From Escherichia phage vB_EcoM_PD328, in sequence record ON922918: DNA of 59,156 bases. One strand, written 5' to 3'. Below the pieces are notes generated by a model. That model saw nothing but the letters and a program-made list of their open reading frames with translations. It had not been told where the DNA came from and did no database searches. Below are positions 2,044 through 49,928 of this stretch, piece by piece. The position numbers and the translations under genes were made by a program. Numbering within the stretch: position 1 is the stretch's first letter; every line of letters begins with the position of its first letter.

Positions 2044-5000
2044 TAAGCAGCCCTCACAATATAGTTGAATGCAACGTTCTTGACAGTGTTTTCTGTGTTG
2101 CCAGTTGCGTTAACTGTAACACCGTGGCTGTGTGAACCTAAAGCGACTGTGTGACTATGAGCACCAATACCAACTGTATGGGTATGAGCACCAATACCAA
2201 CAGTATGTGCGTGAGCGCCTGCGCTTGCAGCAGTACCAGATATAGAGTGCGAATGTGCCCCAGAAGAAGAAGTTCCAAGCGTATTACCACCACCGGCGGA
2301 TCCTCTTATAGCACCAATACCAGGAGCGTTGTTACTTCCCGCATAAAGAGCGCTTGTGTGGCTGTGCGCACCGGCGGTGTTTGTGGAACCGCTCAAACTA
2401 TGCGTATGCGCACCAGTATTATTACTCGTTTTAGTACCGTAATCGAAACTACTTGTCCCTTTAGTACCGTAATCAAAGCTAGAAGTCGTTTTACTTCCAA
2501 GATCGACAGATGCAGTAGACGCAGTGTGGGTATGCGATTTCACACCATCCGCTTCTGTAGAAAGTACGTCACGACCGCTTGCAGGCTTACCTTTGATAGT
2601 TTGACCACGCATGTCTGGCAGTACGCCCGACGGGTATGCAGCAGCCAATTGAGGGTATGCAGCTTTGTCGAATTCCTGCCCTTGCATCACGATGTATCCG
2701 GACGGAGGTGTATCCGTAGGCCACGGTAATGGGACACCTACAGGTAAACTTTCAGCTACAGGAGGTGGGTTCTTTTTAGTGTAAATTTGATCCCAGCCTT
2801 CTTCGAAACCGTGACCATCACGCGATGTACGATACCAAAGACCGCCATTCCTATACGTAGCTCTTATCTGCAAAGAAGGTGTTGAGGAGACAGCATTTTG
2901 ATAGTAATGCACTACAAGGTCCGAGCTGCCCTTTCTCGCATGCTTATAGACACCAGATATAGCGTTCCATGGAACACTGTTATTGTCTATATCACCTCCT
3001 ACAGTAATAATACCTGTTTGTCCTAACGCAAACGCATTCACGTTTCTAGGTGGAATCGATATATCTCCACTACCATCAAAAAGCACATTAGCAATCCTAC
3101 GTGCTGTCTGTAGTTTGGTGGCAGTTGCAGCGTTACCAGTTGTGTTCTGATTACCCTGAATGTTGACGCCTGGAAGATTGACGTCAGCAGTACCGTCGAA
3201 TGAGGCGCCACCAATTTTACGCGCAGTTTGTAGCTTCGTAGCACTGGACGCGTTACCATTCACACCTTGACCGGCGTTCAATTTAGTGCCAATAGTGAAC
3301 TCACCAGTAGCGTTATCAATCATAAATGGTCTTAGATTGTTCCAACCACCGTATTGATCGCCTTTAGCAGTGAATAAAAGATATGTCTTGGTGCCGTCAT
3401 TGCGCCATAATGCACCGTAGTCCCCACCAATCATACGGACCTGATTTCCACCGCGAGCTACAATTTCATCATTAGCGTAGATTTTACGACCACTAATATC
3501 TACATCCGTGATGAGTGCGTGCGAACTATAAAACCCTTTACCATTCGAGAAATCAAGTATAGTATCGGCCTCAATACATTCTGTTTTAGGGTTTGTGGCG
3601 CCCCATTTGTAAGTTGATTGCCCGATAACATAATCGGCAGATGGTACAACAACAGATAAGCCTTCTTCTACATATACAGCAATAGGAAACGCTTCACCTT
3701 CAACATAGAACACAGAACACAGATCATCCGCTTTGTTACCCATCATGATAGAATGAATAGCACGCTCATTTGCGCTATATGCGTGAAACATCCCATAAGC
3801 ATATTTTCCTCTGTCAGTCCAACCACCGGGCATGACAAATCCGTTGAACTCGCAGTTGTTTAGTCTATGGTCTCCTGTTCTTGAACGTGTACTTATCGTC
3901 ACCCTAGATGCTAATTCATCAACGAATCCAGCAGAACGACGAATGACCACAGGATAAAACTTACCTGCTTCAACTCCTGCGGGAGCATTCACTGTCGAAA
4001 ACTTCATTCCCCGTTTAGCGGCCATATCAGTCTTGCTGGCAGCATTAATGTTACTTAGAAAGCGACCCTTGTCCGGTATATCTGCACCGTTCTGATTCTT
4101 CTGCAATGCACCGAGAGCTAAGTTAACAGTCTCGCGTAAACCAACGTTATCAATGAACAGTTGCTTATTAGGAATGTCAGCACCGTTCTGGTCTTTGGCC
4201 AACTTACTGTTAATAAGTGTGGTTATAGTCGTTGCAAAGTTTGGATCATCACCAAGAGCGTCAGCTAACTCTTTCAGAGTGTTTAACGCATCTGGTGCAT
4301 CACCAATCAGTGCGCTTATAATTTGGTGCACAAACTGAGTTGTGGCAATCTGATTGTTATTAACTTCAGGTGCTGGAGTTGGTGCCGTTGGTACACCAGT
4401 TAGAACAGGACTACTTAACGGAGCTTTAGTATTAGCAACGTCCATGACTGCTTTAACAGCTTTCGGTGTAGCTGCCAGGTTCTCGGCGGTGCTGTTAGTA
4501 TCATTGCTAAGACGAACGATACCTTTAGTAGTCAAGGACGCATCTTCAAGACCAATTGCATCAGCAATCTCTTCCGCACGTTCAGCAGCAGCTTCTGAAC
4601 GCAAGGCGGCAGACTCAGATCTTCCAGCTGATGTACCAGCATTAGTTTCTGACGCTTTAGCGTTGGTTTCGCTCGCTTTAGCTGCGGTAGCACTAGCGGC
4701 AGACTCACCGGCTTTGTTAGTCGCAGTCTGAGCGGAAGCTGCCGCATTAGTTTCAGACGTAGACGCTGAAGCTGCCTTCTGTGTTGCAACCGTCTCACTT
4801 GCCTTAGCTGCATTAGCTGCGGTCTGCGATTTACCAGCAGAAGTAGCGGACTCAACTGCACTTGCTTCGGATGCGGCCTTTGCTGCCTCAGCAGCTACTT
4901 TCGCCTGATTAGCAGTGGTTGCACTTGCAGACGCTTCTTTTGCTTTAGTATCAGCCAAAGTCGCATTATTAGCAGATGCAGTTTCTGATACTTTAGCATT

Positions 5001-5660
5001 GTTAGCCGCAGTAGTTGCGGCATTTTTGAGAGCTGTTACTTCAGCGACGCCCTCTTCTTTAATATGCTGCGTGTCGGTTTTTAATTGCTGGACTTCAGCC
5101 TTGAGTCCTTGCACAGCAGTAAGAGCTTGTTGAGCTGATGTAGCAGAACCAGCCGCAGCGTTCTTGGATTGCAATGCGGAAGACGCACTAGCAGCAGATT
5201 CCTGTTTTGACAGCAGAGCTGACGCTGCGTCCGTTGCAGCAGAGTTTTTACTTGTCTCCGCATTAAGCTCACTCTTCTTAGCATTAGCAGCTGATTCAGA
5301 CGCTTGCAATGCAAATTGCTCAGAGTTAGCCACCAGTTGCTTTATCTCCTGAAGTATTTCAGGTGTGGTTTCTTCTGGAGCCCATTTAGTAAGATATGCG
5401 TTAAGTGAACCGTTCTGGCTATCCGCATAGATTACAATGTCACCCGCTTTATATGGTTCCTTACCTTCTGGCCCAATGATAACCACATAATGCCCGGTGT
5501 TCACTGTGACGTCGTAAGCACCTTGCGAATCGGTCTTAAATACCGCTTTACTTCCACCTAGGACTACAATAGTATTGCTTCGTGCAAGTAAGAAGACGTT
5601 TGCATTGACGATTGGTTTGTTCAATCCATCAACTAAAATACCATGTAAACGAATTGCCAT
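2043..5660 (-). CDS. tail fibre protein (long, L-shaped/side fibre type)
   Basis: 1205 aa; long Ala/Ser/Thr-rich coiled-coil shaft; internal repeats of the [11 protein letters not shown] type; Gly-rich C-terminus with multiple HxH repeats (GAHTHT, GAHSHT, GSHSHG). Confidence 0.8.
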
Positions 5661-5746
5661 GAGTTGTGCCCTTATATAAGATCGGGGTTTACATCTTAAA
5701 TTATATCCCTATATAGTTGTTACACACAAACATAAAGGAGTTTGAA

Positions 5747-6025
5747 ATGAAGACTTTAATCTGCGCCATTATCCTTTCTATGACTGCTACGTTTGCTTAT
5801 GCGTCTGGCTCTTCCGGTGGTACTGGTGGTCCAGGTAATGGTGGAGCTGGTGGTTCATCATTAGGTGGGCATACTGGTGGAGTAAGCAACATTGAGCACC
5901 AGACTGTCATCTACGAAGGTACTACAGCCGGTAAAGCTAAAGCTGAATGGATGAAAGGTAAAAAAGTTAAACCGGATTGCTCACCAGCTATGAACCGCGT
6001 TGGTTGGTCCGAAGGTTGTAAATAA
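5747..6025 (+). CDS. small secreted protein of unknown function (candidate receptor-masking or superinfection-exclusion factor)
   Basis: 92 aa from the internal ATG (residue 11 of the track ORF); AAGGAG RBS upstream; N-terminal signal peptide MKTLICAIILSMTATFAYA; Gly-rich mature part with two C-terminal Cys; opposite strand to the flanking tail genes. Confidence 0.5.
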   Translation: MKTLICAIILSMTATFAYASGSSGGTGGPGNGGAGGSSLGGHTGGVSNIEHQTVIYEGTTAGKAKAEWMKGKKVKPDCSPAMNRVGWSEGCK

Positions 6026-24783: not shown

Positions 24784-25303
24784 TTAAAGTATCCTCTTGC
24801 AGCTTAGTCTGAGACTCCCCAGCAACCCTTTCCCAATCGTCCATAGAACCGACCATAGGAACCAGCATAACACCAGTAGATACACCAACATCCATCTTCT
24901 GTTGCTTAGGAGCTTCAAATCCAAAGATGCTACATAATTGTTTATATGCAGCAACACGAGCAGCTTGAGAAGATCCAGGACCACGATAAGTGGATTCAAA
25001 TCTAAGACCTTCAATGATGCGCTGGCGCTCTTGTTCTATTTCATATTTGCGGTCACGTTCAGCACTTCTTGCTTTCTGCTGTTGAAGTTCTTTGATTCGT
25101 CTTTGGCAATAGCTATCATCCTGAAAACGTTTGGCATAATCAAACGCCATTGCGGAGCTCATACCAACACGTTTACACGCATTAACCCAATCATAATCGA
25201 ACAGATATTCTTCAACGACAGAGTCACGTATAGCCATCTCTTCTTTAGTGAGATCGGCTTCGTATTCGATGCTACGTGTCCAAGGTAGAATAGGCTTTAC
25301 CAT
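24752..25303 (-). CDS. terminase small subunit (putative)
   Basis: 183 aa from the ATG at residue 20 of the track ORF (AGGAG RBS upstream); overlaps the start of the large terminase gene. Confidence 0.5.
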   Translation of the reverse strand: MVKPILPWTRSIEYEADLTKEEMAIRDSVVEEYLFDYDWVNACKRVGMSSAMAFDYAKRFQDDSYCQRRIKELQQQKARSAERDRKYEIEQERQRIIEGLRFESTYRGPGSSQAARVAAYKQLCSIFGFEAPKQQKMDVGVSTGVMLVPMVGSMDDWERVAGESQTKLQEDTLNGLNDSDTVH

Positions 25304-27939: not shown

Positions 27940-28289
27940 ATTAAACGCCCATATATGTGATAAATTTTATAAGCAGTGGAAAGACCAATATTGAATTCTC
28001 TCGCTGCAACCTGAAATCTATTCTCTTTACCAGTGTAATTTCTGAGAAATTGATAAATTTCCTCTTTATCCATGTGTCTGTTTCGCACAAGTGTTGGCGA
28101 CCAAAGCCGGCGCATTTCGAGCGTAGCCGCGAATCTTCGCTTGATCTGAGCTACTGTACCAACGTACCAATACTTTGCCCCATTTTGCCCAATAGCCGCG
28201 TGGACGCACCGCGGCGTACCTGTTTTAGCGAACTTGCGCTTTGCAAATTCACACGCGAGTTCCGCATTGTCAAAACGTTGCAAGCCCAT
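27936..28289 (-). CDS. hypothetical protein (possible DNA-binding)
   Basis: 117 aa basic protein; C-terminal segment (GLSTAYKIYHIYG) could form a helix-turn-helix. Confidence 0.3.
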   Translation of the reverse strand: MGLQRFDNAELACEFAKRKFAKTGTPRCVHAAIGQNGAKYWYVGTVAQIKRRFAATLEMRRLWSPTLVRNRHMDKEEIYQFLRNYTGKENRFQVAAREFNIGLSTAYKIYHIYGRLI

Positions 28290-29436: not shown

Positions 29437-29941
29437 ATAACCCCCTTTAACGTTAACGGAATAACTATAGCAGGATACGCAAGTTGATTAACATACGTGA
29501 TCGCAACAATTAATAACCACAGTTAGTCGTCTCGTGTGCTTTAATTCATGATGCCGCAAATCAGCTACGCATACCGGCAAACCGAATATTGTAATCGTCT
29601 CTCGAGTATTTACATACGGAACTAGCTTCATACGAACAATATAGGACAGGTGAGGTGGGGATACAAAGTGTCTAGTGACGAGATAATCTACAAACGATGA
29701 ATCCTTGGCAGAGATCTAAGAGCCGCCCCGCGGCGTTACTATAACGTCCCGTGATCGTCAGTGAGGTGATTGTTACGTCATGTGACTGTCGCGCGCTCTA
29801 TTGTAACGTTGTTTATTATTACACGCGTTATTATTTTTTATTTGATTAGTGTGCTATCTATCGCATGACTATATTATACCGTCCAGTATAATTACATCTG
29901 TTACTATCTACCTGCCCACTATGTGCTGTCTATGTATGTGC

Positions 29942-30008
29942 TACCTGGTATTTCCTGCGCGTGCTGTTACCTGGTATTTTCGACACGCTCGCGCTACCTG
30001 GTATTTCC
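29942..30008. repeat. three direct repeats of TACCTGGTATTTYC in the divergent intergenic region
   Basis: Copies at about 29942, 29968 and 29995 with 26-27 bp periodicity, each preceded by GTGCT. Confidence 0.6.
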
Positions 30009-30089
30009 GGCACACCGTCTACCGTATAGTCCCGGATGTTATTATTATGAAACACAACTAAAAAAGTTCTAAAATAATGCAGATAATAG

Positions 30090-30118
30090 TTGCATCTGAT
30101 ACCCTGCTGTCATATTAT
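30090..30118 (+). promoter_or_regulatory. sigma70-type early promoter (TTGCAT-17 bp-TATTAT)
   Basis: Near-consensus -35 and -10 hexamers with a 17-bp spacer, about 75 nt upstream of the first plus-strand gene. Confidence 0.55.
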
Positions 30119-30193
30119 AAACGCGTGGGGTAAAGGGGGTTTTCAAGCGGGACACGGGTTCCGCGCCCGCTTCACCCGAAGGGAGATTGCATT

Positions 30194-30499
30194 ATGTCCA
30201 TTATCTACTTACCGCGTTCTATGTCCCAGTCCATGATCACCAAACGTATTATCGGCAAGCGCCTGCACCAACTGGGCCTTACTGCGGAAAAGGTTAACGG
30301 GGATTGGGATTTCGACGAGTATCTGGTAATGCTCCCGGGCAACGAAAAATATTCCAGCACCGCGTTGTATATTCGCATTAACGAGGACGGCACTGTCAGC
30401 TCTTATAGCGTAATGTATGGTAGACCAGTATGTCAAGCGAATAGCCTTTGGTCTGTGTTCTGCTTTATTACAATGATAGCGAAAGCTATCCAACAATAA
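30194..30499 (+). CDS. hypothetical early protein (paralogue of the 32116 gene)
   Basis: 101 aa; shares SQSMITKRIIGKR with the 32116 protein (NQSMITRRIIGKR) and a conserved Y...DG.V...GR.V segment. Confidence 0.5.
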   Translation: MSIIYLPRSMSQSMITKRIIGKRLHQLGLTAEKVNGDWDFDEYLVMLPGNEKYSSTALYIRINEDGTVSSYSVMYGRPVCQANSLWSVFCFITMIAKAIQQ

Positions 30500-30575
30500 T
30501 AGCGTGCTAATGGTTGCCCATTGTTACAGTGGGCTCCCACTAGCAATCCGCTAGATCAACATGGAGATAATCACA

Positions 30576-31055
30576 ATGGTTACTATCACCCGCGTAGCAA
30601 AAGACGCTCGCTTTTTCACCAACATGTCTAACGCTCGCCGCGCCTTAAAAAAGGTTCTGGATGTAGACACTGCGACAGCTAATAGCTTTATTCACCAGGA
30701 ACCGCACGAGGACGGTGGCCGCTACTGGTTCAGCGAAAGCGCGGTTAATAAGGCAGCTAACGATCTGGTTGAAGCTGATAAAGCGACTGTCGTGGAAGTG
30801 ACCACACAACAAGCTCCAACCGCTCCCGTTAAAAGTAAAACGCGCAGCGAAACGCGCAACGGGGTCCGCCGGCCCATTAAAGGTAAATGCGCAGACGTTT
30901 GGAACGCTCTGGATAATATGTTGCCTAATGGTGTGCCAACTATTGGTAACGTCCGTGACCTTGCGAAAGCTAATGGTTGGAATATTAATAATGCAACGAT
31001 TGAATTCTACGCATGGCGTAAATTCCACGGGCTCAATAATAAAGGGGGTAACTAA
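30576..31055 (+). CDS. hypothetical protein
   Basis: 160 aa from the second ATG (GGAGA RBS); no recognised motif. Confidence 0.4.
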   Translation: MVTITRVAKDARFFTNMSNARRALKKVLDVDTATANSFIHQEPHEDGGRYWFSESAVNKAANDLVEADKATVVEVTTQQAPTAPVKSKTRSETRNGVRRPIKGKCADVWNALDNMLPNGVPTIGNVRDLAKANGWNINNATIEFYAWRKFHGLNNKGGN

Positions 31056-31133
31056 TTATGTTCTACTTATTAGCGTTCTTGGTATTCGGTGCTCCAATAG
31101 TTGCGGGTCTGTATTATACGGAGGGCAAATAAT

Positions 31134-31319
31134 ATGGAAACTATAGTTCTGAATTGCTGGGTTGACCTGGACGAACACGAATATTGCGTGAATATTAACA
31201 ACGGACCAGTCCCGGACGTGACTTTCGCATCCTATGACGAAATGGATGCGTATGTAAAAGGTTTCCGCGAGTGCGCTCGCATTGCAAATATTAACGTGAC
31301 TGTAATTTTACCGGAGTGA
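31134..31319 (+). CDS. hypothetical protein
   Basis: 61 aa from the ATG after a GAGG RBS. Confidence 0.3.
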   Translation: METIVLNCWVDLDEHEYCVNINNGPVPDVTFASYDEMDAYVKGFRECARIANINVTVILPE

Positions 31320-31324
31320 TTATC

Positions 31325-31591
31325 ATGCGTAAAGCTAACAAGAATTCTTTCGTTGAAATGGCTCGTGTTGTTCTCAACCGTCAGTCCTTCTACCTGTACC
31401 ACCGTCACGAATTTGATCTGTGGACTGAAGAGGAAACGTGCTGCCAGTACGAGATCCATACACGGAATGGTGTAATATTCACTTCCAGTAATTATCCGGA
31501 AGTTAAAGAATACTGGGACAAGCTGATCGCTGAAGCGTATGCTGAATTCCAGAAGCAAACTATTTACCCGATGGGCCTTCGCGCTGAGTAA
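31325..31591 (+). CDS. hypothetical protein
   Basis: 88 aa ORF, tightly packed. Confidence 0.35.
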   Translation: MRKANKNSFVEMARVVLNRQSFYLYHRHEFDLWTEEETCCQYEIHTRNGVIFTSSNYPEVKEYWDKLIAEAYAEFQKQTIYPMGLRAE

Positions 31592-31626
31592 TTATTAACG
31601 TCAACATAATTTAAGGAGTGACTATC

Positions 31627-31872
31627 ATGGCCCAAGCTATTATCACAAAATTCGTGAACCCAACTGCCGCTCGTGCTCCGCGCGTAAAAGCAACCGGCTG
31701 GAGCGGTTCTGTAACTATCACATGGCGTGACGATCTGGGCGTTTACGGCAACCACCGCGCAGCAGCGGAGGAGCTGATAAATAAGTTTAACGTTAAAGCG
31801 GGCGTTGAATTTGGGATCCTTGCTGGTGGTGAGCTCCCGGATCAAAGTGGTTACGCGTTTATCGTTCAATAA
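31627..31872 (+). CDS. hypothetical early protein (paralogue of the 32403 gene)
   Basis: 81 aa; AAGGAG RBS; shares a ...AAAEEL...N...ILAGGELPD pattern with the 32403 protein (AAAQELL...ILGVGTLPD). Confidence 0.45.
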   Translation: MAQAIITKFVNPTAARAPRVKATGWSGSVTITWRDDLGVYGNHRAAAEELINKFNVKAGVEFGILAGGELPDQSGYAFIVQ

Positions 31873-31882
31873 GGGGATAATC

Positions 31883-32047
31883 ATGGAACGCAACTATTTC
31901 CAGCTTATTTATCGCGGTCGTTGCTATCACATCCGCAACAAGTTTCGCAACCTGACCCGCGATCAACTTGAGTACGCTATTAATCTGGTTGGTGATGGTC
32001 ACTTCGCTACACTATCAGAAGCGTTAGAATATGTGTCCGCTGAGTGA
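31883..32047 (+). CDS. hypothetical small protein
   Basis: 54 aa from the ATG after an AAGGGG RBS. Confidence 0.3.
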   Translation: MERNYFQLIYRGRCYHIRNKFRNLTRDQLEYAINLVGDGHFATLSEALEYVSAE

Positions 32048-32115
32048 CATATACATTGCCCATAGTAACAGTGGGCAATAATATGCACTTCGCATAGTTA
32101 ACTGAGGAAACTATT

Positions 32116-32373
32116 ATGTCTACAATATTAAACCAGTCCATGATCACTCGTCGCATTATTGGAAAACGTATAGCTAATCTTGCGACTATCACCGCAGAGC
32201 TGGAAACTTTCGGTAATAACGCGCGCAAATATCGCGTCCGTTGCAATGGTCTTAACGTTTATTTAACAGTGTTCAACGACGGTAGAGTTCACGCGGAACT
32301 GCATACTATGGGCCGCCTGGTTGCAACCGCGTCCACGCTGGTGGGCTTCATCAACCTGTTAAAAAGCTGCTAA
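32116..32373 (+). CDS. hypothetical early protein (paralogue of the 30194 gene)
   Basis: 85 aa; N-terminal motif NQSMITRRIIGKR shared with the 30194 protein. Confidence 0.5.
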   Translation: MSTILNQSMITRRIIGKRIANLATITAELETFGNNARKYRVRCNGLNVYLTVFNDGRVHAELHTMGRLVATASTLVGFINLLKSC

Positions 32374-32402
32374 CTTTTAAAATTGTAACGGAGGTAAATA
32401 AT

Positions 32403-32651
32403 ATGAACGCTATCCATGTCAAAGCACTAGCACCGACTCAATCCAAAGGTATGCGCTTCAAAGCGGTCGGCCTCGGTATGTGCGCAGTAACTGCAAACGA
32501 CTACAACCTCAACGGTGAAGCGAACGCGGCTGCCGCTGCCCAGGAGTTACTGGACAACTACAATATGCAGAACCAGTCGCTTCAACTTAAAATACTTGGA
32601 GTTGGTACGCTTCCAGATAATACCTGGGCGGTACTATTAACCTGTAAATAA
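32403..32651 (+). CDS. hypothetical early protein (paralogue of the 31627 gene)
   Basis: 82 aa; conserved pattern shared with the 31627 protein. Confidence 0.45.
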   Translation: MNAIHVKALAPTQSKGMRFKAVGLGMCAVTANDYNLNGEANAAAAAQELLDNYNMQNQSLQLKILGVGTLPDNTWAVLLTCK

Positions 32652-33689
32652 CTTCTAACTGCATTATATAATCCGCGCCCTGTTGAAGTCCAACGGGGCG
32701 CTTTCGTTTTTGTACCCGCACCACCTCCCCGCGCTACCCTGCTGACCACATGTTACTCACCCATAACTCCACCATTCGCGCTCTAAGAGCGTAAACCCTT
32801 CCTCCGTATATTACCATTGACACAAATATAGTCGCCTTATACGCGCTTACAGCGATCCACTCCCTGCATCCCTGTACGCGATTTGGGGGCATTTTCACCC
32901 CTCGCTGCCACCCTTACACCGATCCAACCGCTTTATCGCGCTACGTGCCCCGTTTTCGCGGCTATTTTCGCTTTATGGGCGACCCGCTACACCGATCTCA
33001 GCCACCCAACCTCACCGAAAAGCCACCTTTCACCGAAAAATCCGGCATTTATACCATAAAATAGAATCGTTTTCGGGCTACAAAATTTCAAACTCAAAAA
33101 TCCGATTCGCTCCGAGAGTCACTTCAACAAAAATCGCTTGCAATCCAATTTTATTTTGTGTTAGACGCACGGGCACGCATTATGCGCAGGCGCCAGGCTC
33201 TGCCCTGTCTACTGACGAGCCAAATTTATAAAGTTCATAAATTCGTATATTTTCGCGTAATATACGAAATGAAAGGAGGTAAGTGCATGAAAAATAAGGT
33301 AAAAATGTGTATATGTGTGTATTTATATAAATTTTATAAAGATTTTTTGTTTTTTGAGTTGTCTACTGACGACCCTACGAGACCCCTTTATAAAATTTAT
33401 AAATTCACACGTTCCCCCCAACCCTCAAAATTTTCCCTTGTTTTTCATACACTTCGCTTCGCCGTTTCGTATATTGCTGGGTCTTTATAAATTGTGCATT
33501 TTTTCACCGATCTTTATAAATGTACAATTTCTCACCTTCAGACTGTTGTAATTTTTGCAAAAGCAAAAACTTTGCATATACAAAACACCGCAAAACATCA
33601 CAGTTGCAAATAGCAAAAACTTTGCATAAATTAAAACTTGGCAACTGAATTTCAAAATCAGTCGATTTATTATTATCAAGGGTGAGGTT
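32652..33689. repeat. about 1 kb non-coding repeat-rich region (candidate replication origin or regulatory/ncRNA locus)
   Basis: No credible ORF on either strand; GC-rich left part with repeated ACACCGATC and CACCGAAAA motifs; AT-rich right part with at least 7 copies of TTTATAAA-type palindromes and two copies of GCAAAAACTTTGCATA. Confidence 0.5.
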
Positions 33690-34310
33690 ATGCGCAATCG
33701 TAAAATTGAAATAACACACGCACACGTACAAGAAATGTTCGGTTACGACGAAGTGATGTACGCCAAAGCGGTAGCTATATTAGAGCAACATAATGATAGC
33801 CTAAGTAATGTGGTCAAAGCATGGAAGGAGGCTGGCCTCGTGTTGCGGCCGAATGCGGTCAAGACGCTGGACGACGGGCGGAAGTATATGTGCTGGTCGG
33901 CTCCGGTGTTGGGGATGATGTTCACTATCGACATCTACTTCGCATACTGGTTGTTAGAGGTGGATTGTGTGATTCCGCTCGACAAGTATATGCGCAGTAA
34001 AGGGTTCAATAGTTGCTTTGATGTTTGCTCTGACACGGAAGGTAACGGTGTTATGATCCTGGGCTTTAAGTGGGTGGATGATAAGTGTGAAATAAGGCCG
34101 CTGCGATATCCACGTGGTAAAGCGCGTCGTGCATATATCGAAGACGGTATTGTTCATTGGTGCAATGTAACGAAGCGTCGAATTAGCACTAACCACATTG
34201 CTCATATCAAAGAGTGCCTCGTTAGACTTCAGACGAATAATAGTGGTAATGTGCAGTTACAGAAAGAATTGCAAGAACTCATTGAGTACATTGATCAGTT
34301 CGGAGCGTGA
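33690..34310 (+). CDS. hypothetical protein
   Basis: 206 aa ORF, Cys-rich, no recognised motif. Confidence 0.45.
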   Translation: MRNRKIEITHAHVQEMFGYDEVMYAKAVAILEQHNDSLSNVVKAWKEAGLVLRPNAVKTLDDGRKYMCWSAPVLGMMFTIDIYFAYWLLEVDCVIPLDKYMRSKGFNSCFDVCSDTEGNGVMILGFKWVDDKCEIRPLRYPRGKARRAYIEDGIVHWCNVTKRRISTNHIAHIKECLVRLQTNNSGNVQLQKELQELIEYIDQFGA

Positions 34311-47677: not shown

Positions 47678-49681
47678 ATGTTCAAACTACGTGATTATCA
47701 GCAAGAAGCTGTAAATAGTACATTGCGCTATTTTATCAAGCATGGTGAAAAGTCAGGAAATCCTGTTATCTTGTTGCCTACAGGGACTGGTAAGTCCCTT
47801 GTAATTGCTGGTCTATTAAAGACAATTCATGATAATTGGGGTAGTACCCGCATGATGGTAATTACTCACGTAAAAGAATTGATAGACCAGAACCACGATA
47901 AGTTCAAGAAGTTATGGCCTGAAGCACCGACTGGTATTTATAGTGCTGGTATGGGTCGCAAGGATAAGAACGCAATGATAACGTTCGCAGGTATTCAGTC
48001 TGTTGCAAAACAAGCTAAATACTTTGAGGACGTTGATATTATTATAGTGGACGAATGTGACCTTATTAGTCCAAATCAGCAAACAAGTTATCAGAAGTTC
48101 TTTGCACATATCCGTGAAAAGAACCCATATCTAAAGATTATCGGTCTTACTGCTACAAGCTGGCGTCTTGGTTTTGGTTCTATTATCAAAGATGACTATG
48201 CTCCTAATGCTCTATTTGATGAAATCGTATTTAACGCGTGTACTGTAGAGTGCTTCAACTGGTTTATTGATGAAGGTTATCTGGTTCCATTAGTACCACG
48301 TAAAACAAAGAAAGAGTATGATGTAAGTGGTGTTCATACTCGAGGCGGTGAGTTCATTGAAAGTGAACTTCAGAAGGTTGTAAACGACCCTGATGTAACA
48401 CGCCATTTGTTAGATGATGCGATTAGTATTGCGGAAGAAGAGGGCAGAATGAGTTGGCTTATCTTTTGTGCTGGTGTAGACCATGCAAAAGATGTAAAAG
48501 ACTATCTCAATGAACGCGGTATTAGTTGCGAAGTTGTAACTGGTGATACACCGAAAGCCTTGCGTGACCAGTACCTCATTGACTTTAAAGCTGGTCGTTT
48601 GCAGGCAATAGCGAACAACAACGTATTGACCACAGGCTTTGACCATCCTGGTCTTGACTTGATAATTGGTATGCGCCCGTCCCAATCTTCCCGCTTATGG
48701 GTTCAGATGCTTGGACGTGGTACTCGACCTGATTATGCTGATGGTTTTGATTTGACCACAACGGAAGGTCGTTTGCAAGCTATCTCCGCTTCGCATAAAC
48801 AGAACTGTCTTGTACTAGACTATGCGGGTAATACAAGACGTCTTGGACCTATTAACGACCCTGTAATTCCTAAGCGTCCAGGGCAGAAAGGAAAGTCCGC
48901 TGCACCTGTTAAAGAATGCCCGGTATGTAAAACCTGGAACCATGCGTCGGTTCGCTATTGTGGTGGGTTAAAACCATTCGATACAAGCAGTATGTCCCAT
49001 GAAGAAATACTCTATCTTCAAGGATTAGGGTATACCATTACAAATAATAAAGCGTGTCGTGCTGGTTATTGCGGTCATGAGTTTACTTTTGAGAAGAAAC
49101 TGATGGCGAGTGCTAGTACGAAAGCTATTATCAAGAATGATTTACCAGTCACTGAGGTATTGAAAGTTGATATGGTGAGTTACTATCGTCATGAGAACAG
49201 GGGTGACCGTTCTAAGCCACCAACACTTCGTGTCGATTATCTTTGTGGCTCACAAACTATTCAACAATATATTTGTCTGTTCCATACTGGCTTTGCAGGC
49301 AAGAAAGCGCGTAACTGGTGGCGCGAGCATTGCAGCTTGGCAATCCCAGCCAACATTGACGAAGCTCTTAATGTGGTCAGCCAACTCCGTGTACCGACGC
49401 ACATCTATGTCAACTTGAAGGGTAAGTTCCCTGAAGTGTTGAATAGTTGTTATGACGGTAGTGAGTTTGGTAAGAAAGAAGCAACTAATGAACGTCCGGT
49501 TGTACAAATCGCGGCAATGAATGGCTTGTCCCAGTTTGGTGGAAGTTATACGAATAAGTTTGATGAAGACGAGCAGACTGATTCTCGTACGACAGTGTTG
49601 CATTCTACGTCTAATCAACCTATTCTTACTGGTAACGGTAAAGAGCTACCACCAGATTTTGATGACGACATTCCATTTTGA
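47678..49681 (+). CDS. SF2 DEAD/DEAH-box-type helicase with SSB-like C-terminal tail
   Basis: Walker A LPTGTGKS, motif II VDECDL, helicase C-domain motifs; protein ends ...LPPDFDDDIPF, identical to the conserved C-terminal tip of E. coli SSB. Confidence 0.7.
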   Translation: MFKLRDYQQEAVNSTLRYFIKHGEKSGNPVILLPTGTGKSLVIAGLLKTIHDNWGSTRMMVITHVKELIDQNHDKFKKLWPEAPTGIYSAGMGRKDKNAMITFAGIQSVAKQAKYFEDVDIIIVDECDLISPNQQTSYQKFFAHIREKNPYLKIIGLTATSWRLGFGSIIKDDYAPNALFDEIVFNACTVECFNWFIDEGYLVPLVPRKTKKEYDVSGVHTRGGEFIESELQKVVNDPDVTRHLLDDAISIAEEEGRMSWLIFCAGVDHAKDVKDYLNERGISCEVVTGDTPKALRDQYLIDFKAGRLQAIANNNVLTTGFDHPGLDLIIGMRPSQSSRLWVQMLGRGTRPDYADGFDLTTTEGRLQAISASHKQNCLVLDYAGNTRRLGPINDPVIPKRPGQKGKSAAPVKECPVCKTWNHASVRYCGGLKPFDTSSMSHEEILYLQGLGYTITNNKACRAGYCGHEFTFEKKLMASASTKAIIKNDLPVTEVLKVDMVSYYRHENRGDRSKPPTLRVDYLCGSQTIQQYICLFHTGFAGKKARNWWREHCSLAIPANIDEALNVVSQLRVPTHIYVNLKGKFPEVLNSCYDGSEFGKKEATNERPVVQIAAMNGLSQFGGSYTNKFDEDEQTDSRTTVLHSTSNQPILTGNGKELPPDFDDDIPF

Positions 49682-49688
49682 GGCTTAT

Positions 49689-49928
49689 ATGGCAAAAATG
49701 ACTTTTAGGAGTAATGACCATTTACCAGAAGAAGGTGAATGGAAGACTTTTAAAGAGTGGGAAGAGTTAGGCTATGGTGTAATTAAAGGTGAAAGAGCTA
49801 AACGGTTTATTCACGGTGTTGCAGTTTTTCACGAAAGTCAAGTAATCAATATTGAAGACGAGTTCGAAAAATATAAACGTGAAGAACTGCAAGGAATGTA
49901 TTGCGGACCAGAATGGTGGAAGGATTAA
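49689..49928 (+). CDS. hypothetical protein
   Basis: 79 aa from the ATG at residue 57 of the track ORF. Confidence 0.35.
   Translation: MAKMTFRSNDHLPEEGEWKTFKEWEELGYGVIKGERAKRFIHGVAVFHESQVINIEDEFEKYKREELQGMYCGPEWWKD

Follow-up and report, generated by a model that had tools for sequence, protein, structure and literature searches.

The terminal repeat of phage T7 is flanked by the short-repeat arrays SRL and SRR, and at the primary origin of the same phage tandem promoters adjoin the origin. The T7 concatemer junction carries a 160-bp terminal repeat, and its duplication proceeds through a hairpin intermediate in the model summarised in PMC4281155. In the Nonagvirus group, the described system is the pac site of phage 9g. 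Read pile-up and run-off sequencing, each independently, placed the terminase cut of 9g at nt 28243 (PMC4276943, PMC5567051). Among known systems, Repeat Region 3 of phage T5, which is untranslated, comes closest in layout to the locus considered here.

The locus belongs to the Nonagvirus (9g-like) phage vB_EcoM_PD328 (record ON922918), of which a stretch of 59,156 nucleotides, referred to as the window, was analysed. The gap extends over 32652-33689, exactly as the first-pass annotation placed it: the preceding gene stops at 32651 and the ATG of the following gene lies at 33690. That annotation described a single interruption of a densely packed genome. The interruption is real, but it is not the sole large one, as a second untranslated region is present at ~29500-30193. 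Of the two physical ends of the packaged chromosome, the second most likely falls in the gap, where a direct terminal repeat (DTR) of ~3.7 kb has its inner edge. As a whole, the gap can be read with fair confidence as an untranslated junction, situated where the long Nonagvirus DTR borders on the early genes at its inner edge. From left to right, such a junction would comprise an intrinsic terminator that closes the operon of small genes in the DTR, a conserved C-rich block of 450 bp, and a 174-nt palindrome with TGTCTACTGACGAC at its centre, inverted CTTTATAAA arrays and the right chromosome end at TTTATAAA (33387-33394). The last ~300 bp would be unique DNA, in which a tandem pair of promoter-like repeats precedes the first early gene and its ribosome-binding site. 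The features are as follows.

29669..29682, + strand: TGTCTAGTGACGAG, left copy of a 14-mer common to both DTR boundaries (exact-copy search)
29720..33391, + strand: predicted direct terminal repeat, 3,672 bp in PD328 (homology to the HdK1 and HdSG1 ends)
29724..29756, + strand: two pac repeats CGYCCCGYGRYS directly within the left end of the DTR (2 matches, 0.10 expected)
32675..32711, + strand: intrinsic terminator closing the DTR operon (11-pair stem with 8 GC pairs, then TTTCGTTTTT)
32712..33165, unstranded: conserved C-rich block (C 39%, G 16%; 93% pairwise identity)
33166..33240, unstranded: variable cassette with three alleles among relatives (alignment columns 517-600; 64% identity)
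33225..33520, unstranded: array of the CTTTATAAA 9-mer with inverted symmetry about the palindrome centre (invariant in relatives)
33281..33454, unstranded: imperfect palindrome of 174 nt across the DTR boundary (inverted repeats and DNA fold)
33360..33373, + strand: TGTCTACTGACGAC core motif in the loop or centre of the palindrome (invariant in 13/13 aligned phages)
33387..33394, unstranded: TTTATAAA palindrome likely to house the right virion DNA end (HdK1 and HdSG1 ends; 9g DraI pattern)
33555..33632, + strand: two tandem sigma-70-like promoter candidates on the repeat GCAAAAACTTTGCATA (sequence reading, repeat family)
33640..33660, + strand: GGCAACTGAATTTCAAAATCA, an invariant 21-mer, 8 nt past the second -10 box

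The gap is found in all 17 related records (17/17) at 85-95% identity. Among 12 relatives, the identity across it is 92-94%, compared with 72-82% at the third codon positions of the flanking genes, which supports the earlier suggestion that the region is probably functional. It is conserved to the same degree as codon positions 1-2 in the genes on either side, and more strongly than position 3; the gap is therefore under purifying selection. A sensitive blastn search of phages, E. coli genomes and plasmids returned no matches beyond the 17 Nonagvirus records, and the first early protein, considered as a bridge to other genera, is confined to Nonagvirus. In JenP1, an HNH gene takes the place of the first ~225 bp of the C-rich block. 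The gap is real, strongly conserved DNA, and its reading is a useful correction for this phage group rather than the description of a new kind of element.

Such conservation, together with a long hairpin-forming stretch and the small ORFs annotated in the gap of five relatives, would suit a gene for a non-coding RNA, or else a protein gene that has decayed or been overlooked, yet this explanation is barely credible in view of the coding and folding evidence. The 136-codon stop-free frame at 32821-33228 contains zero start codons, and its variable columns are distributed 25/25/30 by codon position, i.e., with no periodicity. This frame is a by-product of C-richness. The ATG at 33287 is preceded by the Shine-Dalgarno (SD)-like AAAGGAGGT, but indels downstream shift the frame in relatives, and in SE1, which is 95% identical, the frame ends after about 14 codons. 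The ORFs annotated in the five relatives lie at differing, non-homologous positions. No ORF conserved across 13 phages was found in six frames, so that the absence of a credible ORF reported in the first pass holds. The regulatory RNA proposed at the same time is not supported either. The whole window matches no Rfam family at the gathering threshold, and the gap searched at E ≤ 1 yields nothing real, the weak miRNA-precursor-like matches (E-values 0.45-0.6) being due to the long hairpin. The search for tRNA and tmRNA gave zero hits. Consensus RNA folds of the palindrome and the C-rich block show compensatory changes in 0/60 and 1/78 pairs, the pairs being invariant, so the check by covariance that had been suggested speaks against an RNA. 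The terminator scan found no terminator of its own for a putative RNA within the gap, and the E. coli genomes and plasmids contain zero matches to the region.

The position of the chromosome end derives from relatives with read-defined ends. Korf et al. placed the ends of their records where most reads stopped abruptly, and two such records, HdK1 and HdSG1, carry exact DTRs of ~3.37 kb. The HdK1 repeat is 3,367 bp long, 100% identical, and maps to 29720..33391 of the window; that of HdSG1 is 3,363 bp long, likewise 100% identical, and maps to 29720..33394. The boundaries agree exactly at 29720 and within 3 nt at 33391/33394, and the latter difference may mean that the cut is ragged or was imprecisely called. 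HdK1 begins with ATAAAGGGGTCTCG and HdSG1 with TTTATAAAGGGGTCTCG, the reverse complements of the window sequence CGAGACCCCTTTAT followed by AAA, with one end on each side of AAA. The left end, at 29719/29720, corresponds to the 9g terminase cut at nt 28243 with nucleotide precision, and a BglII site lies 2 bp off, as in PMC5567051. As homology to these relatives shows, every virion DNA would start at this pac cut and end ~3.1-3.7 kb beyond the next pac copy. With the virion end at the right DTR boundary, each virion would carry the left 740 bp of the gap twice and would terminate with them on the right. The first-pass suggestion of a packaging site is right insofar as one physical DNA end most likely falls in the gap, but the pac repeats and the mapped cut are 3.7 kb to the left, at 29720-29756. 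The predicted DTR of PD328 holds about 8 small genes in addition to these 740 bp; their products have no Pfam matches, and the PHROGs that they match are all of unknown function.

Phage 9g offers a comparison with published gels. The homologous end in 9g falls at nt 25160-25163, which corresponds to a DTR of 3,081-3,084 bp and to predicted terminal DraI fragments of 8,362 and 8,239 bp. The published gel shows a ~8.4-kb DraI doublet, lacks the 5.2-kb and 13.5-kb bands, and gave a redundancy estimate of 3.0-3.2 kb (PMC5567051). A fixed end in the gap reproduces both the pattern and the estimate. The run-off signal at 28243 falls by 33-50% (PMC5567051), as predicted if each molecule of a DTR genome has the site once as a cut end and once internally. 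The results were interpreted by Tsai et al. 2017 (PMC5567051) as headful packaging from pac, in which case the right end is not specified by sequence and the gap is unrelated to the ends; the Ion Torrent analysis also reported one read-end hot spot, at 28243, and none at the homologue of 33391 (PMC4276943). This interpretation is very unlikely. The pac-spanning 13.5-kb fragment is wholly missing, and the fragment from the right end runs as a discrete band, from which it follows that the genomes are neither permuted nor diffuse at that end. Repeats of 3.08, 3.36 and 3.37 kb belong to genomes with 56.7, 60.2 and 60.7 kb of unique sequence, so that the redundancy stays near-constant, at ~3.1-3.4 kb, despite a 4-kb difference in genome size. 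The redundancy does not grow as the genome shrinks, and the end is therefore set by sequence rather than by headful measurement; the agreement of the HdK1 and HdSG1 ends within 3 nt also stands against headful termination. A fixed end accounts for the DraI pattern, and the authors' own gel data thus argue against the published headful and permutation interpretation. In the relatives, the DTR boundary appears as a sharp repeat at both ends, as discrete fragments and as a position independent of length. Nanopore-defined DTRs are also present in iggy, a phage of the same TerL clade. The IMG/VR collection contains 8 homologous contigs, 0 of which end at the terminus, and so provides no independent evidence on the ends.

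The two parts of the gap differ in composition, and counts confirm the description of a GC-rich left part with repeats and an AT-rich right part with palindromes. The left part (32652-33040) has 53.5% GC, compared with 43.8% in the whole window, and it is more exactly C that is abundant there (37%, with G at 16.5%); in the right part (33041-33689), GC falls to 34.8%. Several motifs have all of their window copies inside the gap: ACACCGATC (two, at 32916 and 32989, with two further one-mismatch copies), CACCGAAAA (two, at 33013 and 33031), GCAAAAACTTTGCATA (two, at 33563 and 33613) and the CTTTATAAA 9-mer (five). For TTTATAAA, 1.75 copies are expected in 59 kb and 7 are present, six of them within 33225-33520, and its variant TTTATATAAA is located at 33322. 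Pairwise identity is 94% at the terminator on the left edge, which the HdK1, HdSG1 and SP8 records annotate as such. The C-rich block that follows contains three copies of ACMSCGATC, the two of CACCGAAAA and five of CGAAAA/TTTTCG (a sixth lies at 33250). Its core (33051-33090) has 97% invariant columns, and the block contains neither an ORF nor RNA covariation. GATC is not enriched genome-wide, and the four copies in the gap are part of the ACMSCGATC repeat. Zero chi sites lie inside the gap. Chi sites sit just outside it.

The predicted end is embedded in a structured part of the gap. The large palindrome is built of two inverted repeats, I1 with 29-nt arms (83% complementary) and I2 with 25-nt arms (84%). 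Its DNA fold reaches -27 kcal/mol, compared with -11.7±2.8 for shuffled sequences (z = -5.5; 0/200 shuffles equally stable). The pairs are retained in 12 relatives and are all invariant, i.e., there is zero covariation. The outer arm includes the SD-like AAAGGAGGT with its ATG, which mimics a gene start. The TGTCTACTGACGAC core stops 17-20 nt short of the terminus, and the terminus module is invariant in 13 phages. The CTTTATAAA copies at 33225 and 33333 have one orientation and those at 33386, 33483 and 33512 the opposite one, with an extra TTTATAAA at 33396. The cassette allele shared by PD328, SE1 and SP8 contains a second terminus module, composed of TGTCTACTGACGAG (33206-33219) and TTTATAAA (33225-33232). 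The 14-mer TGTCTASTGACGAS is found exactly three times in the 59 kb, each time on the + strand. Two of these copies adjoin the DTR boundaries, and the third, at 33206, belongs to the second terminus module, ~170 nt to the left of the right end. The left copy ends 37 nt outside the left DTR end and is conserved in SE1, SP8, 9g and HdSG1. HdK1 has a degenerate copy (AGTCTAGTGGCGAT) at equal distance, which weakens the claim that the 14-mer is strictly needed for the left cut.

The AT-rich composition and the inverted symmetry also bring to mind a replication origin, at which the phage primase-helicase and polymerase would start, with the nearby genome end being secondary or produced by replication. 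An origin of this kind, rather unlikely on balance, would be compatible with the junction described above. The segment 33241-33545 has 32.5% GC against 43.8% in the whole window and holds the five inverted-symmetry 9-mers and the large palindrome. It is adjoined by tandem promoter-like repeats, as at the T7 primary origin, and the sequence is strongly conserved. The sharpest switch of GC skew in the window lies at ~33600-33700, with the cumulative minimum at 33-34 kb, but the G-rich early operon begins at the same place, so the switch is confounded by transcription, that is, by gene orientation. DnaA boxes are absent from the gap and number 1 in the window against 8.2 expected. P4-like TTCACC iterons were considered and rejected: YTCACC is common genome-wide, follows gene orientation and is not specific to the gap, being explained by strand composition. 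The search for an initiator was negative; the primase combines AEP and DUF3987, with no known origin specificity.

Another explanation concerns transcription. The two candidate promoters are TTGCAA-16-TATACA (33555-33582) and TTGCAA-17-TAAATT (33604-33632), the -35 boxes of which are conserved. Both match 8/12 positions against a scan threshold of 9/12, and TATACA is without the required final T. The tandem repeats are candidate early promoters that would drive the early operon. The 21-mer GGCAACTGAATTTCAAAATCA has its only other window copy at 33076-33096, 8 nt past a TAGAAT hexamer, and the pair possibly represents a shared transcription-start region. The promoter cluster suggested in the first-pass annotation is plausible for the last ~140 bp only, where the two TTGCAA-N16/17-TAnAnn repeats lie; TTTATAAA is not a genome-wide promoter motif, because a single copy occurs elsewhere. 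As candidates for such a motif, TTTATAAA and the 21-mer GGCWAC..AATTTCAAA were both discarded, with zero other copies upstream of operons.

The gap could accordingly be a purely transcriptional control region between the DTR operon and the early operon, formed by the terminator, a Rho-loading C-rich spacer, TTTATAAA/TGTCTACTGACGA operators for a repressor or activator and the early promoters, with the genome end being incidental. This is possible though doubtful. It agrees with the strong terminator, the rut-like composition downstream of it on the transcribed strand (C 39%, G 16%), the promoter-like tandem repeats and the placement of the 21-mer pair in the manner of transcription-start regions, as well as with the 14-mer in the other promoter region at 29669 and the TetR-like regulator gene annotated in the 9g DTR. 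However, composition is what a rut site requires, and 93% identity in sequence goes beyond that. Two independent phages end in one 8-bp palindrome and a Seuratvirus phage in an analogous one, which makes an incidental end unlikely.

If the gap is the junction at the inner DTR edge, the right end would be made by a sequence-directed cut or nick and not by head filling. The repeat would be copied from a single concatemer copy through nicking and strand-displacement or hairpin-primed synthesis, as proposed for T7, and the 14-mer beside both boundaries would serve as a recognition element. In a more far-reaching version, which is quite improbable, the untranslated block would do more than offer a cut site: in this small siphovirus, it would control in cis how the DNA enters or how the repeat is duplicated. 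First, it could act as a T5-like pause, with the 3.7-kb repeat, which has its own promoter, terminator and eight tiny genes, entering and being expressed ahead of the remaining genome. Second, it could act as an origin or hairpin, with replication from the palindrome making the second repeat copy; here a two-site terminase system would recognise the 14-mer common to both boundaries.

With such a junction, the Nonagvirus phages (9g, SE1, JenK1, BASEL Bas19/20 and others) gain a defined structure of fixed ends and a gene-carrying repeat of 3.1-3.7 kb. Most deposited Nonagvirus genomes would therefore be collapsed and arbitrarily opened, and the virions would hold ~3-4 kb more DNA than the records state. 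Rebooting or engineering of these 7-deazaguanine-modified phages would need correct rebuilding of the ends and repeats. For annotation, the gap has repeatedly attracted calls of spurious small ORFs. A compact, conserved candidate signal for end formation is provided by the TGTCTACTGACGAC core together with the CTTTATAAA array and the palindrome of 174 nt, and a 450-bp conserved block is delimited within the gap.

The comparison with known systems begins within the genus. The 9g pac site belongs to the same repeat, of which the cut at 28243 is the left boundary. It differs from the end in the gap in lying 3.7 kb away and in its motifs, two 21-bp repeats with the CGYCCCGYGRYS core, and where its authors proposed headful termination and circular permutation (PMC5567051), a fixed second end is indicated here. 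In T7, the motifs are unrelated, the Nonagvirus repeat is 20 times longer and carries genes, and Nonagvirus is a siphovirus using the host RNA polymerase; a hairpin intermediate in PD328 is an analogy drawn from its sequence. Both systems share fixed ends, a DTR requiring duplication from a single concatemer copy, short-repeat arrays by the boundary, and a hairpin or palindrome implicated in processing.

Equivalent gaps occur in Seuratvirus, at 49315-49842 in KurtStettler and at 59507-60337 in ECP2304. They have no nucleotide similarity to the Nonagvirus gap, their motifs are of the AGTTTATA and GGAATAATTTATTCC types, a long C-rich block is absent, and the DTR has its other end past the divergence point. 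The map order is the same, with the divergence point, small genes, an AT-rich gap of 0.5-0.8 kb, then early genes and primase. A terminator stands at the left edge of the gap, short A/T-rich palindromes are present in both orientations, and the 3,695-bp DTR of the ECP2304 record ends in the gap at one such palindrome.

The likeness to T5 goes furthest, although there is no sequence similarity. The Nonagvirus repeat is 3.1-3.7 kb long, compared with 10 kb in T5, and the DnaA boxes (TTWTNCACA) that are the proposed key feature of the T5 region are lacking in the PD328 gap. Two-step DNA transfer and single-strand nicks are features of T5, and the likeness of PD328 concerns its sequence layout. 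In PD328, the terminus lies in a short palindrome nested in a large one. In both phages, ~1.0-1.2 kb of untranslated DNA full of nested direct repeats, inverted repeats and palindromes straddles the inner edge of a long terminal repeat. The T5 region lies mostly inside the repeat with a 270-bp overrun into unique DNA, and that of PD328 has 740 bp inside and 298 bp outside. Both regions are conserved among relatives above the ORFs of the repeat, both have received HNH endonuclease genes in some relatives, and both adjoin a repeat that holds small early genes of unknown function.

A gene of 82 codons has its stop codon directly before the gene-free stretch at 32652-33689, and one of 206 codons has its ATG directly after it. 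The genome belongs to Nonagvirus (9g-like, Queuovirinae), with Salmonella phage SE1 as its nearest relative. The region is kept in 17 of 17 Nonagvirus records at 85-95% identity, and a sensitive blastn search against phages, E. coli genomes and plasmids gave no match outside this genus. Among 12 phages, the mean pairwise identity is 0.94 for the terminator, 0.93 for the C-rich block and 0.92 for the AT-rich block, compared with 0.84-0.93 at codon positions 1-2 and 0.72-0.82 at codon position 3 of the flanking genes. Because the values of 0.92-0.94 exceed those of the flanking third positions, the DNA of the region is under purifying selection. A 75-bp cassette at 33166-33240, for which there are three alleles, is an exception, as is a portion of the promoter-proximal segment. 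The first-pass annotation had called the stretch probably functional and proposed conservation in related phages as a check, and both expectations are borne out: the region is real, under selection and a composite of cis-acting elements.

A recount over the whole window reproduced the motif counts of that annotation. ACACCGATC, CACCGAAAA and GCAAAAACTTTGCATA occur twice each, always within 32652-33689, and TTTATAAA is found seven times in 59 kb, where 1.75 copies are expected, and six of the seven lie inside 33225-33520. The left part of the region is C-rich (C 37-39%, G 16%), and the GC content of the right part is 33-35% versus 43.8% window-wide. The region is composed of the following elements:

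32675-32711: intrinsic terminator
32712-33165: C-rich block that contains several families of short repeats and, at 33051-33090, a core with almost no variation
33166-33240: variable cassette, in this lineage a second copy of the terminus module, TGTCTACTGACGAG with TTTATAAA
33281-33454: imperfect palindrome of 174 nt, DNA fold z = -5.5
33555-33632: two tandem TTGCAA-N16/17-TATACA/TAAATT promoter-like repeats, followed by an invariant 21-mer

The centre of the palindrome carries the invariant TGTCTACTGACGAC, and the terminus lies 17-20 nt rightward of this motif. Around the centre stand five CTTTATAAA 9-mers, which are all of the window's copies, two on the left and three on the right in opposite orientation; one arm is an SD-like sequence resembling a gene start. 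We infer that the last 300 bp hold early promoters. The 21-mer (GGCWAC..AATTTCAAA..TCA) has two invariant copies, 33076-33096 and 33640-33660, and no others in the window, each preceded at a distance of 8 nt by a -10-like hexamer (TAGAAT and TAAATT, respectively). If the first copy is a transcription start, a promoter inside the repeat would read across the terminus.

A decayed gene is disfavoured as an explanation of the region. The 136-codon open frame of the C-rich block has neither a start codon nor codon periodicity, run-length differences in relatives shift the frame downstream of the ATG at 33287, which is preceded by AAAGGAGGT, and the small ORFs annotated in the region in five relatives lie at non-homologous positions; the earlier judgement that it holds no credible ORF stands. 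The regulatory ncRNA suggested at the same time is disfavoured as well, with no match in Rfam and tRNA searches, only 0 and 1 compensatory pairs in the consensus folds and no internal terminator found in the region.

The position of the genome ends gives the region its best-supported role. HdK1 (64,059 bp) and HdSG1 (63,595 bp) were deposited as linear genomes opened at the site where the majority of reads came to an abrupt end, and their termini are 100% identical over 3,367 and 3,363 bp, respectively. In window coordinates, this terminal repeat spans 29720-33391 by HdK1 and 29720-33394 by HdSG1, with the right ends 3 nt apart and falling within TTTATAAA at 33387-33394. The left boundary, which has a BglII site 2 bp away and two adjoining CGYCCCGYGRYS repeats, coincides exactly with nt 28243 of 9g, where read pile-up (PMC4276943) and run-off sequencing (PMC5567051) placed the terminase cut. 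This agreement with an independently mapped cut validates the deposited ends. Packaged molecules are thus shown by homology to start at 29720 and to stop at about 33391 after one full genome, from which it follows that the left 740 bp of the region would form the extreme right end of virion DNA and occur twice per virion. Of the functions proposed earlier, a packaging site comes closest: the region most likely contains the right genome end, with the mapped terminase cut lying at 29720. The region is best read as the place where the Nonagvirus terminal repeat has its inner junction and right end, and it also carries a terminator and, probably, early promoters.

An HNH homing-endonuclease gene of JenP1 (297-770 of its stretch L014) stands in place of the terminator and of the ~225 bp with which the region begins. 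Some relatives carry such genes at or beside the terminal repeat's untranslated junctions, namely JenP1, HdK1 (3536-4015 of its stretch L004, just outside the left repeat end) and ECP2304 (250-774 of its stretch L053).

Headful packaging, in which the right end is not set by sequence, could draw on the 9g Ion Torrent study, where only a single hot spot was seen, but is disfavoured by several observations. In the recomputed 9g DraI map, pac lies 8,362 bp from the left and 5,155 bp from the right DraI site, and a fixed end at the homologous TTTATAAA gives a 3,084-bp repeat and an 8,239-bp right terminal fragment. This model matches the published ~8.4-kb doublet, the absence of bands at 5.2 and 13.5 kb and the published redundancy of 3.0-3.2 kb. 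The 33-50% run-off drop in 9g is the prediction for a terminally repeated, non-permuted genome, and the repeat length stays at ~3.1-3.4 kb throughout a 4-kb range of genome sizes, unlike the headful expectation. The 9g paper also describes read coverage that is ~1.5-fold higher throughout the early-gene half and breaks off sharply at the pac cut (KJ419279 nt 28243 = window 29719/29720). This excess does not come from the 3-kb repeat, since it amounts to roughly 14 kb per genome, and resembles a bias introduced by the library or by base modification.

Exact matches to the 14-mer TGTCTASTGACGAS number three in the window, all of them + strand, against an estimated ~0.002 expected by chance. One stops 37 nt before the repeat begins on the left (this copy is degenerate in HdK1), another ends within the repeat at 17-20 nt from its right end, and the third belongs to the duplicated module. 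The second end would arise from a sequence-directed cut or nick within the palindromic array, and the repeat would be copied from the concatemer's single copy by strand-displacement or hairpin-primed synthesis, as in the T7 model, with the 14-mer common to both boundaries directing both events. A replication origin would fit the AT-rich palindrome, the repeat arrays and a skew switch at about 33.6 kb, although this switch falls at the start of the early operon and the region has no DnaA boxes. A purely regulatory region of terminator, rut-like spacer, operators and promoters explains part of the anatomy but leaves unaccounted for the ends of three phages in such palindromes.

Chi sites (GCTGGTGG) are ~10-fold enriched in the window, with 8 against 0.84 expected and 0 of 100 shuffles reaching 8 (5846, 9185, 20820 on the - strand, 31822, 32337, 35164, 38527 and 54518; 7 of 8 on the + strand); two + strand sites fall where that strand is C-rich. 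The terminal repeat holds two of the sites, at 1.05-1.57 kb from its right end and in the orientation readable by RecBCD entering there. In each of HdK1, HdSG1, SP8, SE1 and 9g, a + strand Chi is present at a distance of 1.05-1.28 kb from the terminus, the opposite orientation being absent nearby. DnaA boxes (TTWTNCACA) are depleted window-wide (1 versus 8.2±2.5 expected; at least 1 in 100 of 100 shuffles). TACCTGGTATTT has three copies at 29942-30006 in the other untranslated region, just within the repeat's left end and flanked by the pac repeats and the start of the operon; these copies, 26-27 bp apart and found nowhere else in the window, may be operator or iteron sites. The repeat also holds two paralogous small-gene pairs without a Pfam domain (phrog_13865 twice and phrog_3199 twice, at 30194-30499 / 32116-32373 and 31618-31872 / 32403-32651).

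Seuratvirus, without nucleotide similarity to the region, has the same map: the early/late divergence point, small genes spanning ~1.5 kb, an untranslated AT-rich gap of 0.5-0.8 kb, and early genes with primase. The gap opens with a terminator-like hairpin and holds inverted short repeats (KurtStettler, 5316-5843 of its stretch L051; ECP2304, L053 1508-2338). The ECP2304 record has an exact terminal repeat of 3,695 bp, one end of which lies in the gap at the palindrome GGAATAATTTATTCC, recurring there in both orientations. In iggy, of the same TerL clade, terminal repeats were defined by Nanopore. The T7 concatemer junction is the mechanistic analogue, while the closest match overall is T5 Repeat Region 3, which is likewise untranslated (1.2 kb) and built of nested repeats and palindromes. 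Most of it lies inside the terminal repeat, which it overruns by 270 bp; it is better conserved than the ORFs of the repeat, and in some relatives HNH genes have been inserted into it. The DnaA boxes that define it, however, are missing from the Nonagvirus region, which resembles it in layout but is not assignable as a member.
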